Part shown: positions 9,558-12,106 of the stretch, in pieces
Layout of the letters: each line of letters starts with the position of its first letter
Position numbering within the stretch: position 1 is the stretch's first letter
Assembly: GCA_965227515.1 (NCBI GenBank)
Contig: CBDDFZ010000001.1
Span: 2,944,001-3,008,000, forward strand
DNA: 64,000 nucleotides
Direction of reading: 5' to 3'
Source: Alphaproteobacteria bacterium
Lineage (GTDB): Bacteria; Pseudomonadota; Alphaproteobacteria; CALKHQ01
Notes under the pieces: model-generated
What the model saw: the letters and a program-made list of their open reading frames with translations, nothing else
What the model was told of the DNA's origin: nothing
Databases searched by the model: none
Made by a program: the position numbers and the translations under genes

Positions 9558-9606
9558 GAACATAAGAGGAAAACAGATAGACAGAGGGTAGGTTGTATAA
9601 TAGTGT
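9558..9606 (+). promoter_or_regulatory. LexA-type box plus sigma70-like promoter for the lipoprotein/toxin cassette
   Basis: GAAC-ATAAGAG-GAAA (9558-9572); TAGACA (9578-9583) - 17 nt - TAGTGT (9601-9606). Confidence 0.55.
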
Positions 9607-9816
9607 CTCTGTATCATCCAATACGTGCATCTGGCATCAATTCCGTTTGCATCGACGCGCGTGCTTGTGGCGCTGGAACGGCGCACGGCCTCGCCCAGGG
9701 CGAGTACATTCCCGGCGATCATTCGCGGCCGCTCAACACGGATGCGAGCTGCCGACAGCGTCATGCCGCAACGCCCAATTTTGGAGAATTCAGCGACTGA
9801 CGACAGGCGTCTCAGA

Positions 9817-10365
9817 ATGACAAACCCAACAATGCTGGCGACGGTGGCAATTCTTGCTGGGACCGTGCTGGGCTGTGCCCGTGGACCGGCAACACCACGG
9901 TTGGAGTACTACCCGCAAAATCCGGTTGAGCGTGCCCATGTCTGGCCCAGAACGATCGCAGAGGAATGTACCGCAGAATTCCTTAGATCGAAGGTGGCGT
10001 CGATGGTGTCGATTGATGATGCCGTCGACCGGTTTCAAGAGCTTGAATGGGACTGCGCCCAGAACGATCATGGTGCGGTGTGTACATTCGAGTTCACCTA
10101 TTTTGATGCTGCTATTCGCAAAGTATATGATCCAACTCTGTTCCAAAATGACGTTACTATACATATGGAGTTATTGGAGGTGGATGATCGAATATTCATT
10201 AACGATTTGAACTTCGAGGAGTTAACCTCAGAAGTAACTGAACAAGAATATCGCGCTGGGATGTTGGAGCTTCGGCAATTGGGTGATTTTCTGCCTAGCT
10301 CGGAGCTTTCGGTTGAGGACTATATGAACAACTGTGAGCCAGAGGTGCCTAGCAATGAGCAATGA
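9817..10365 (+). CDS. Lipoprotein, putative immunity protein copy A
   Basis: Lipobox VLG-C; aligns by eye along its length with 10510-11031 (YP.N..ERA..WP, W.C, CT..F.Y.D.AI.KVYDP, EV.E.EYR, NCE); AT-richer DNA. Confidence 0.75.
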   Translation: MTNPTMLATVAILAGTVLGCARGPATPRLEYYPQNPVERAHVWPRTIAEECTAEFLRSKVASMVSIDDAVDRFQELEWDCAQNDHGAVCTFEFTYFDAAIRKVYDPTLFQNDVTIHMELLEVDDRIFINDLNFEELTSEVTEQEYRAGMLELRQLGDFLPSSELSVEDYMNNCEPEVPSNEQ

Positions 10366-10504
10366 GAATTGGCTTGTAGAAATGGGATCATATCCAATAC
10401 CAGGCATTGGTGGCGGGTATGCACACTGTTTTGTGGTGATCACGGATCCGCTGAGAAATCCGTGGTTAGTAAATTGCAACCGTCTTGCGACCTTTAAGGA
10501 GTGA
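10355..10504 (+). pseudogene. 49-aa truncated copy of the N-terminus of 11040-12062 (orphan toxin head)
   Basis: Hand translation MSNENWLVEMGSYPIPGIGGGYAHCFVVITDPLRN versus MARNENWRVEMGSYPIPGIGGGYAHSFIMIIDPMGN. Confidence 0.85.
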
Positions 10505-10509
10505 AGAGA

Positions 10510-11031
10510 ATGGCAATCCAACACATTTTTGTTTTCGTAACCATCGCCCTTTCGGCGGTGGGGTGTTCACGCCAACCTTCAGCTCCTGCGTACGATTTCT
10601 ACCCCACAAATGAAATTGAGCGTGCATATTATTGGCCTGATGGCACACGCCAGGATTGTATCATCAGGCTCTTAAATAGCCGGCTGTCCGGCAGTCATGG
10701 CCTAGATGATATAGATGGTATTTTATCAAACATGGGTTGGTCGTGCGAATTGGATGGTGATCGACAAACTTGCACCTATTCATTTTCTTACTACGACAGC
10801 GCTATTCATAAAGTTTATGATCCAATTCGAATTCGTTATGATATCGAAATTCAGTCAGGTATTGCCCTTGGTGATTTTGATCAAATGATATCTAGTGTTG
10901 TTCTGAAGAATGAGAGAAATGAGGTGTCAGAGAATGAATACCGCATAGCGATTAGTCAAGGTTATGCCGACGGACGATATAGTGACGAAAGTCCGCCGTC
11001 GTTTTCTGATTTAGCCGCGAACTGTGAGTGA
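10510..11031 (+). CDS. Lipoprotein, putative immunity protein copy B
   Basis: AAGGAG RBS, lipobox AVG-C, four further Cys shared with copy A. Confidence 0.78.
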   Translation: MAIQHIFVFVTIALSAVGCSRQPSAPAYDFYPTNEIERAYYWPDGTRQDCIIRLLNSRLSGSHGLDDIDGILSNMGWSCELDGDRQTCTYSFSYYDSAIHKVYDPIRIRYDIEIQSGIALGDFDQMISSVVLKNERNEVSENEYRIAISQGYADGRYSDESPPSFSDLAANCE

Positions 11032-11039
11032 GGCCGAAG

Positions 11040-12062
11040 ATGGCAAGAAATGAGAATTGGCGAGTTGAGATGGGTTCGTATCCGATCCCAGGGATTGGTG
11101 GCGGATACGCGCACAGCTTCATCATGATCATCGACCCGATGGGCAACCGCTACCTGTTCGAAGGGCATGGTAAGGGGCGAGAAGGCACCGACGAGCCTGG
11201 TGGCTGGGAGCACTTCATTCCTTTTTATGATGATAGCATCAGTGCGGGAGAAGGGGACATATTCTTTGCGCACGAGCGCAATCGTTTCCTACTCTTCGAG
11301 GGGCCGAAGGAGATTGTATTTGACCAGATCCGGTCGGCACTGATTCTGGTATCCAATGCTATCAATGATGCCGATTTGGACTACGAGCCGATCACGTTGG
11401 ATCCGTTTGACGAAGCACAGAATAGCAATAGCGTTGTCCGCACCTACACCGATGTCATCGAGGCAATTGTCGAGCGCAATGGTGGTGAGTACCTGGGTGT
11501 CCCCGATTACTACACTGACGACGAGGTGCTGTGGCATCAGAACAATTCGGTCTATCTGCCGGGCTGGGATCGCAATCTGCTCGACCAGATTGGTGTCGAC
11601 ATACCGGATCTGATCGAGCAAGCGGCACCTACGTCCCTGCCATTGCCATTGCACGGTCAACCCAGGGGCGCGCAGGATCAAGCGCTCGTGGGTGGGCAGC
11701 GTTCCGATGCCGCGACCACGTCAGTTTCGGGCGCCGCATCCGGTAGTGCCGCGGCCCGCGGTAATGCCTCCACGCGGACGTCGGCGACGTCGTTGCTGGG
11801 GAGATTATCGGCTGCCACGAGTTCGGCAACCGCCAAAAGTACCGGCAGCAAGACAGCCAAGAAAGCAGCCGACGGCAAACTGGCCAAGGCGCTCAGTCAA
11901 CCGCGTGACCCATGGGAATCGCTACTGACGGTGCCAGGGGCCTCCATGAACAAGCGCCAGAAAGAACAAATAGTGAAAACGCGCGCTTCGTCGACAATCG
12001 CGACCCGACGTTCGGGCCGGCGACGGCGACCTGACCACGATGTTGTAGCGCCGACCGCCTAA
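11040..12062 (+). CDS. Putative effector/toxin: N-terminal permuted papain-like domain, low-complexity linker, short C-terminal module
   Basis: YAHSF...Y.......NSNSVV...LPGW pattern; A/S/T/K-rich linker; DNA becomes more GC-rich around 11630. Confidence 0.6.
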   Translation: MARNENWRVEMGSYPIPGIGGGYAHSFIMIIDPMGNRYLFEGHGKGREGTDEPGGWEHFIPFYDDSISAGEGDIFFAHERNRFLLFEGPKEIVFDQIRSALILVSNAINDADLDYEPITLDPFDEAQNSNSVVRTYTDVIEAIVERNGGEYLGVPDYYTDDEVLWHQNNSVYLPGWDRNLLDQIGVDIPDLIEQAAPTSLPLPLHGQPRGAQDQALVGGQRSDAATTSVSGAASGSAAARGNASTRTSATSLLGRLSAATSSATAKSTGSKTAKKAADGKLAKALSQPRDPWESLLTVPGASMNKRQKEQIVKTRASSTIATRRSGRRRRPDHDVVAPTA

Positions 12063-12078
12063 CCGATACCGCTTCGCC

Positions 12079-12106
12079 GGGCGCCCATCACGAGGCGCCT
12101 TTTTTT
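12079..12106 (+). terminator. Intrinsic terminator after the cassette
   Basis: GGGCGCC-CATCACGA-GGCGCCT followed by a T run. Confidence 0.7.

Follow-up and report, generated by a model that had tools for sequence, protein, structure and literature searches.

A cassette of four small genes, at positions 9558–12106 of a 64,000-nucleotide stretch of an alphaproteobacterial contig (CBDDFZ010000001.1; the window, hereafter, is that whole stretch), is the subject of this work. It encodes two putative lipoproteins, A and B, a short stub, X', and a complete gene, X, and it is lodged between the head and tail genes of a prophage. We think, tentatively and with slightly less than even confidence, that X would be a periplasm-acting effector targeting lipids or acyl groups, that a lipoprotein would give immunity to it, and that A and X' would together represent a module that has been displaced.

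Organization of the cassette

The four open reading frames are co-oriented, and their order (A, the 49-residue X', B and the full-length X) and sizes are those described in a previous analysis of the letters of the window, which we call the sequence-only reading. The features of the cassette are as follows.

9507..9547, + strand: intrinsic terminator at the end of the head operon; hairpin at 9507–9540, then UUUUGUU
9596..9601, + strand: TATAAT hexamer, possible −10 element of a cassette promoter; seen by eye, weak evidence
9817..10365, + strand: lipoprotein A, 182 amino acids; lipobox-like V-L-G-C20; four further Cys; putative orphan partner of a lost X copy
10355..10504, + strand: X', stub of a second X gene; 49 codons; ATG 11 nucleotides inside the 3' end of A
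10510..11031, + strand: lipoprotein B, 173 amino acids from the ATG, directly upstream of X; lipobox-like A-V-G-C19; four further Cys
11040..12062, + strand: gene X, 340 amino acids; start 8 nucleotides past the stop of B
11040..11639, + strand: N-terminal globular domain of X, residues 1–200; predicted permuted papain-like (NlpC/P60-type); His25, His43, Tyr115, Asn130-Ser131
11640..12062, + strand: C-terminal tail of X, residues 201–340; basic, low-complexity, probably disordered
12079..12110, + strand: intrinsic terminator closing the cassette; 7-base-pair GC stem (hairpin 12079–12100), then a T run

Gene coupling is tight, with an overlap of 11 nucleotides between A and X' and a distance of 8 nucleotides between B and X, and the genes make up a single low-GC unit. 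B has an alternative GTG start at 10501, and an AAGGAG is found 8 nucleotides ahead of its ATG. The bracketing of the cassette by terminators, which had been noticed from the sequence, is confirmed: the upstream hairpin folds with −38 kcal/mol (z −4.43, with 0 of 200 shuffles as stable), and the downstream one consists of a GC stem plus a T run, the fold energy alone being unremarkable there (z −0.8). Regarding the cassette's own promoter-like site, the TATAAT at 9596–9601 can be read by eye but is absent from the list of a two-hexamer promoter scan, which makes it weak evidence for a promoter. An Rfam search of 9300–12300 gave no RNA family.

The composition of the cassette differs from that of its surroundings. 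The fraction of guanine plus cytosine (GC) is 0.42–0.53 within it versus 0.65–0.72 in the flanks, the genome mean being 0.666. At third codon positions (GC3) the values are 0.52 for A, 0.46 for X', 0.39 for B and 0.64–0.65 for X, compared to 0.88–0.93 for the flanking capsid, decoration, tube A and nozzle genes. The drop in both measures agrees with the previous statement that the cassette is more AT-rich than the flanks. Only one copy is present in the genome. Judged by these sequence properties, the cassette is a compositionally foreign, horizontally acquired insert. It displays the features of a phage moron, namely its own terminator, deviant composition and presence in 0 of 32 related clusters, with the promoter limited to the hexamer found by eye.

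Lipoproteins A and B and the history of the modules

A and B share 31% identity over 162 amino acids (E 4e-33), which makes them diverged paralogues. Each has a hydrophobic N-terminus that ends in a G-C lipobox-like motif, and four further cysteines are common to both (51, 80, 89 and 173 in A; 50, 79, 88 and 172 in B), so the description of the pair as diverged paralogues with lipoboxes and four shared cysteines was correct. Both proteins are acidic, with 12 Lys plus Arg versus 34 Asp plus Glu in A and 13 versus 26 in B. Neither has a significant family match in Pfam, PHROG, PADLOC or NCBIfam; the sole Pfam line for B, DUF2963 with E 0.034, is under its cut-off. Relatives of A and B were found neither by word search nor in the genomes of 100 relatives, viral contigs or phage records. 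The structure model of B, with a predicted local distance difference test score (pLDDT) of 69, gave only uninformative matches of mixed folds with template-modelling (TM) scores not above 0.31.

Over residues 4–39 of X, the stub X' shows 27 identities in 36 (E 3e-20); beyond about codon 38 the likeness is lost and the sequence preceding B takes over. Both comparisons show saturation of synonymous sites, with a proportion of differences (pS) of 0.77 for A/B and 0.83 for the X'/X head, while the nonsynonymous divergence (dN) is 0.80 and 0.19, respectively. Because of this saturation and these dN values, the modules should be either old paralogues or units joined by recombination. Furthermore, the gene from which X' comes was under purifying selection for a long time before its truncation. 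The comparisons support two anciently diverged lipoprotein-plus-X modules, the first of which would have lost its X. The presence of A and X' upstream of B and X corresponds to the displaced or orphan module of polymorphic toxin systems. The displaced variant proposed in the sequence-only reading is strengthened to this extent by the saturated synonymous sites, whereas the immunity role that it gave to A is something that we infer only.

Gene X and its relatives

X is a rare gene. A HMMER pass with residues 1–200 against 1.84 billion representative proteins (E ≤1e-3) gave six matching cluster representatives, P0002 at 62% identity and five others at 31–40%, all of them from clusters that are singletons or pairs. 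A word-indexed protein search with X returned P0002 only; P0003 was gained with a profile search. X matched no model of Pfam (threshold E 0.1), PHROG, NCBIfam or PADLOC, and five of the six relatives had no Pfam match at E ≤0.1 either. Scans of genomes, viral contigs and metagenome contigs with X, alignment A4, P0006 and P0009 gave nothing, as did tblastn of X against phages and plasmids, and among 101 relatives' genomes X was matched in the window's own genome only. PDB searches with the X sequence and the X profile gave chance-level matches, and neither X nor P0003 is present in the protein Atlas.

The sequence of X contains no cysteine, no hydrophobic or transmembrane segment and no signal peptide. 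Its N-terminal domain is acidic (12 Lys plus Arg versus 36 Asp plus Glu), and its tail is basic (23 versus 8), with 61% of its residues being A, G, S, T, P or Q. In most of the longer relatives, too, a globular domain (about 190 residues) precedes a tail of low complexity, the tail of P0004 and P0009 being short. One metagenomic relative, P0006 (406 amino acids), carries after the X-like domain a C-terminal Hint-like region that starts with Cys-Phe (weak Pfam match, E 0.0064). This layout resembles that of Hedgehog, in which a cargo domain is followed by an autoprocessing domain, and the fusion might fit, as a weak indication, a released effector domain.

Predicted fold and conserved residues of X

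The N-terminal domain of X was modelled with AlphaFold2 from an alignment of eight sequences, seven of them independent at 90% identity. The model (pLDDT 76.4; predicted TM score, pTM, 0.80) is formed by strands at residues 7–15, 23–31, 37–46, 63–72 and 81–88, followed by helices at 90–111 and 129–146. An N-terminal five-stranded sheet followed by a helical subdomain is the organization described for permuted NlpC/P60 enzymes (PMC3142127), and the X model has this five-stranded sheet plus helices.

The first distinct match of the model in a Foldseek search of the PDB was human CLN5 (6r99; E 0.014, probability 0.97, query-based TM score 0.41), the second was the Vibrio cholerae type VI secretion system (T6SS) effector TseH (6v98; E 0.14) and the third was Aichivirus 2A (7zv6; E 0.24, probability 0.85, root-mean-square deviation 2.1 Å over 78 columns); parechovirus 2A ranked 24th. 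Weak matches in BFVD included PPPDE (rank 3), DUF4105 (rank 6), YaeF/YiiX C92 amidase (rank 16) and kobuvirus polyproteins. We take the picornavirus 2A proteins of the H-box/NC type, to which Aichivirus 2A belongs, to be LRAT-like. The circularly permuted NlpC/P60 branch comprises CLN5 and PPPDE (PMC9012467), YiiX and LRAT (PMC3142127), and TseH, Tox-Act1 and DUF4105 (PMC12994826), and according to these three articles its members have a histidine upstream and a nucleophilic cysteine at the start of a helix. The named top matches of the X model, each of them weak, converge on this superfamily, which is suggestive of the same fold class.

The conserved residues of X can be examined in this light. 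Within the eight sequences, H25, N128, N130 and S131 are found in 8/8, and E41, H43 and S129 in 7/8 each. A tyrosine is present at 115 or two residues before in all eight, in the same column in six of them. In the X model S131 opens the helix 129–146. The His25-to-Ser131 spacing is 106 residues in the linear sequence, whereas the distance between histidine and nucleophile is reported as 105 in BcPPNE (H49, C154; PMC3142127), 108 in Tox-Act1 (H43, C151; PMC12994826) and 114 in CLN5 (H166, C280; PMC9012467); H25 and S131 are thus arranged like the upstream histidine and the nucleophile, at about 105–115 residues from each other. The His/Asn-Ser pattern had been foreseen from motifs before modelling, and the fold search then indicated the same superfamily. 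Searches of X and its six relatives against the member families LRAT, Peptidase_C92, Peptidase_C97, DUF4105 and DUF6695 gave no Pfam match.

Alleles of the cassette in other samples

Parts of the stretch occur in nine sequencing runs of six studies, none recorded as RNA, and contigs of four of them were compared with the window. The A-X'-B arrangement is nearly unchanged elsewhere: 3 of 1102 positions differ in run X2 (record 5, 9888–10989), and there are no differences over 10235–10503 in run X3 (record 9). Gene X behaves differently. A 945-nucleotide contig of run X2 (record 6) carries an allele of X that is about 93% identical over 11383–11593 and 11676–11940, with 15–16 differences in each segment, and that has below 80% identity over its first ~354 nucleotides (~115 codons), where only patches of 29–32 nucleotides fit. 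The sample contigs are of low depth and the X2 allele was read in part. These data support that the N-terminal third of X is its variable part. The variable N-terminal domain proposed in the sequence-only reading gains from the X2 allele, which differs mostly in those codons, but not from X', which is uninformative about a variable N-terminal toxin because nothing but the ~38 conserved residues at its start is retained. The head of the X2 allele (window 11040–11400) reads more like X' than like X, and this resemblance suggests exchange between module heads.

The slot between capsid and tail genes

The location of the cassette between head and tail genes, stated in the previous reading, is borne out by the matches of the genes on each side.

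7788..8948, + strand: major capsid gene, left flank; PF19821 2.7e-82 over residues 97–385; phrog_3437 2.3e-78
8960..9442, + strand: 160-amino-acid gene adjoining the capsid gene, left edge of the slot; position of BcepC6B gp09 by comparison with the BcepC6B and KL4 annotation; called here the head-decoration gene
12137..12694, + strand: tail tubular protein A gene (tube A), right edge of the slot; phrog_394 1e-61; 44–46% identical to BcepC6B and KL4 tail proteins

The true start of the capsid gene is probably near 8070. The 160-amino-acid gene has homologues with 71–73% identity in the same place in both same-family genomes. No portal, scaffold or terminase gene was found in the prophage, and in the region 6593–7790 of the window a LacI-family regulator gene ends about 130 nucleotides ahead of the capsid gene. 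The prophage is thus a remnant; from its gene content, the host element is a decayed BPP-1/BcepC6B-like podovirus prophage.

Of 401 genomes that were sampled across the class, 100 had homologues of tube A (82 of 307 genera), a very broad distribution for a single structural module of a podovirus. For a survey of the slot, 32 of these loci were taken, the best-scoring ones with enough flank. Both capsid and tube A were located by tblastn in 24 of the 32, the other eight being dropped since no capsid was recognised. The gap between capsid and tube A is 58–830 nucleotides in 16 clusters, 1034–2329 in six and 2916–3978 in two, whereas it is 3188 in the window. A, B and X were found in 0 of the 32 surveyed clusters.

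The content of the slot varies as well. In one same-family genome only 326 nucleotides separate the decoration gene from tube A, and in the other there are 1836 nucleotides with repeats and a glyoxalase/bleomycin-resistance-like gene (PF00903, 5.9e-18). In the latter locus (L042:5200–7037), about 1 kb of GC-rich repeats follows the glyoxalase-like gene, with repeated peptide strings in several frames. The slot of two distant genomes, G279 and G394, holds a SocA_Panacea antitoxin (PF13274, 4.5e-24 and 3.7e-23) plus a small membrane protein; at L049:4850–5693 and L050:4595–5447 the antitoxin gene is followed by the gene of the small membrane protein, likely a toxin-antitoxin or defence pair. BcepC6B and KL4 have one 100-amino-acid gene, not related to X, in the equivalent slot, and a derivation of the X tail from the small gene of BcepC6B was rejected (E 22). 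The check that had been suggested, whether homologous clusters hold differing cassettes at this place, was run, and the slot turned out to be variable and to hold other cargo, being neither invariant nor empty. Differing across clusters in both gap size and content, the slot is a hotspot for cargo genes. In BPP-1-like podoviruses of different hosts, the interval from the head-decoration gene to tube A harbours toxin-antitoxin, resistance-like and effector-like genes.

Proposed interpretation as an effector with lipoprotein immunity

In the interpretation that we favour, the cassette would be an effector-immunity moron horizontally acquired into the variable slot of a decayed prophage. The N-terminal domain of X would be an enzyme of the circularly permuted NlpC/P60 type with Ser131 in place of the cysteine nucleophile. 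After export, X might attack the acyl or ester bonds in envelope lipids or in lipoproteins on the periplasmic side of the target cell, where the exported lipoprotein B would neutralise it. A and X' would be what is left of another module that diverged long ago; its toxin gene would have been destroyed, with an orphan protector remaining. That the cassette products are enzymatically active and toxic, where they act, that immunity is conferred and how export takes place are all points that we infer. The combination of an X protein that has no signal peptide or transmembrane segment with A and B proteins that have lipoprotein signals and paired cysteines matches the distribution over compartments of periplasm-acting T6SS effectors such as Tox-Act1.

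The toxin-immunity interpretation of the sequence-only reading survives in part: the fold class, the variability of the slot and the displaced module speak for it indirectly, but a delivery domain, the catalytic cysteine and co-variation of B with X are missing. Its label of polymorphic toxin is not supported for X in the strict sense. Neither Pfam nor NCBIfam nor PHROG revealed a domain for trafficking or secretion in X, and the position of the catalytic cysteine is occupied by serine; for these two reasons the label is not earned.

Several observations weigh against the interpretation that we favour. Regarding the fold, no match of the model reached E ≤1e-3 (the best were 0.014 in the PDB and 0.04 in BFVD), the TM scores did not exceed 0.45, and the model was built on eight sequences only. 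The NC motif with its nucleophilic cysteine is absent, as position 131 is serine and the preceding residue asparagine in 8/8, and X has no cysteine at all. Since Cys280Ser is listed among the active-site mutants of CLN5 (PMC9012467), X may be a pseudoenzyme. Membership in LRAT by profile was rejected, with hhalign giving 4% probability against six bacterial LRAT-domain sequences; the histidine region was aligned there, and the Asn-Ser of X was not aligned with Asn-Cys. Regarding delivery, the genome has a T6SS, with TssC and one VgrG at C1:3.998–4.006 Mb, but X is not linked to it: the cassette is about 1.04 Mb away from this only T6SS cluster, no PAAR was found, and X has no T6SS marker domain. 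Regarding the partnership, the N-terminal domain of X and both lipoproteins are all acidic, relatives of A and B were found nowhere in the collections searched and, as a weaker point, B is nearly invariant in run X2 while the N-terminus of X varies, with no visible co-variation.

We also considered a broader proposal, according to which X founds an undescribed, serine-bearing branch of the permuted NlpC/P60 superfamily, an interbacterial or anti-envelope weapon with an N-terminal toxin that would be guarded by dedicated outer-membrane lipoproteins, shuffled as lipoprotein-plus-toxin modules, spread by morons and, in one relative, released by a Hedgehog-like Hint autoprocessing module. We regard this proposal as rather doubtful. 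If X is active, it would mean that a permuted papain-like scaffold can work with a serine nucleophile, and the effector-immunity architectures described so far would be joined by a lipoprotein-guarded layout with an N-terminal toxin. An inactive X would make the locus a common orphan moron of a prophage in decay. The direct characterisation of lipid-targeting NlpC/P60 toxins dates only from 2026 (PMC12994826).

Comparison with known systems

The closest parallels to the effector-immunity interpretation are Tox-Act1/Imm-Act1 and TseH. Tox-Act1 is described as toxic only in the periplasm and neutralised by the adjacent immunity gene, and lipid-targeting, periplasm-acting T6SS toxins are included in the permuted NlpC/P60 superfamily (PMC12994826). 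X shares with them the lack of a signal peptide, a small adjoining partner gene and a genome that contains a T6SS. Moreover, the predicted fold class is the same, with a histidine in the sheet and the nucleophile, or its counterpart, at a helix start about 106–108 residues on. The differences are that X has no sequence or profile match to them, has serine instead of the catalytic cysteine, has its partner upstream and in the form of a lipoprotein, belongs to a prophage remnant ~1.04 Mb from the T6SS genes, and carries an extra basic, probably disordered tail of 140 residues.

PPPDE/CLN5, LRAT/PLAAT and the picornavirus 2A H-box/NC proteins, a group of permuted papain-like acyl hydrolases and transferases, provide the best fold matches, with a common core of five strands plus two helices. 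The correspondence with CLN5 extends to residues, with H25, Y115 and N130-S131 of X facing H166, Y258 and C280 (PMC9012467). However, all these proteins are eukaryotic or viral, have cysteine nucleophiles and lack an immunity partner, and the LRAT profile comparison gave the low hhalign probability already mentioned.

Polymorphic toxin loci, such as those of CdiA-CT/CdiI, Rhs-CT/RhsI and MuF, contain orphan modules, toxin remnants and orphan partner genes. The cassette is similar to them as an array of diverged modules with a truncated remnant that keeps a conserved stretch, with an orphan partner, and with variation of X concentrated in one region. In contrast to CdiA, Rhs and MuF, the candidate toxin domain of X is N-terminal and there is no filament, Rhs cage, MuF, LXG or PAAR domain. 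In addition, the remnant X' is upstream and consists of only ~38 conserved residues rather than a toxin domain.

The telocins of Klebsiella telomere phages are phage-borne bacteriocin-immunity cassettes in a variable locus (PMC12042878). The likeness is that toxin and protector travel together as exchangeable cargo, at a single locus that related temperate phages have in common and that is without cargo in some of them. Telocins, as described there, are colicin-like, with parts for receptor and translocation functions and a killing domain at the C-terminus, whereas X shows none of these, and the phage is here a remnant without portal and terminase genes.

Alternative explanations

The first alternative is that the cassette holds two separate moron functions, A and B being surface or periplasmic lipoproteins for superinfection exclusion or receptor masking, of the Cor/Llp/Ltp kind, and X an unrelated enzyme or a dead binding module. 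Exclusion lipoproteins are frequent among prophage morons (PMC3952083, PMC3594210). The absence of the nucleophile cysteine from X, the acidity of both partners and the lack of co-variation of B with the N-terminus of X in run X2 would fit such independence, but the lipoprotein-plus-X module occurs twice and is translationally coupled, and no exclusion family of PHROG or Pfam is significant for A or B, which leaves no match to the Cor, Llp or Ltp families. Moreover, Cor and Llp are short proteins, unlike mature A and B, which have ~155 amino acids with four cysteines. We consider this explanation unlikely.

An abortive-infection pair, in which an envelope lipoprotein senses infection or damage and a cytoplasmic, acyl-hydrolase-like X kills or arrests the cell, appears to us still more unlikely. 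It would be in line with the absence of an export signal in X and with the parallel toxin-antitoxin cargo (SocA_Panacea antitoxin plus membrane protein) in the same slot of G279 and G394. However, PADLOC gave no match for A, B, X and five relatives of X, a periplasmic sensor and a cytoplasmic effector would have no membrane-spanning link between them, and the pairing of an orphan lipoprotein with the stub of a toxin is seen more typically in effector-immunity arrays.

Finally, X might be an acyltransferase or deacylase of the permuted NlpC/P60 type that remodels the lipid anchor of its partner lipoprotein, each X variant being matched to its own lipoprotein, as could be imagined from DUF4105/Lnb, a permuted NlpC/P60 lipoprotein N-acyltransferase of Bacteroides (PMC12994826), from the suggestion of lipoproteins as possible Tox-Act1 targets (PMC12994826), from the proposed cleavage of fatty-acyl amides of lipoproteins by YiiX (PMC3142127) and from the DUF4105 protein among the weak fold matches of X, but the relation of fold on which all this is based is weak and X, having neither signal peptide nor membrane anchor, would not meet the anchor of a mature lipoprotein, which makes this explanation very improbable.

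Other features of the prophage remnant

Besides the genes at the edges of the slot, the flanks contain the nozzle gene (phrog_376, 5e-210), a 145-amino-acid gene (phrog_4177) and genes for an internal virion protein, a tail-fibre N-terminus and an amidase-type endolysin. At the far end there are a tRNA-Pro (22516–22592) and an IS481-type transposase gene on the minus strand (22637–23845). In the region 14829–15723 of the window, the 145-amino-acid gene overlaps the listed 207-amino-acid frame of the internal virion protein by ~170 nucleotides; as the PHROG match of that frame begins at residue 75, its real start is probably further downstream.

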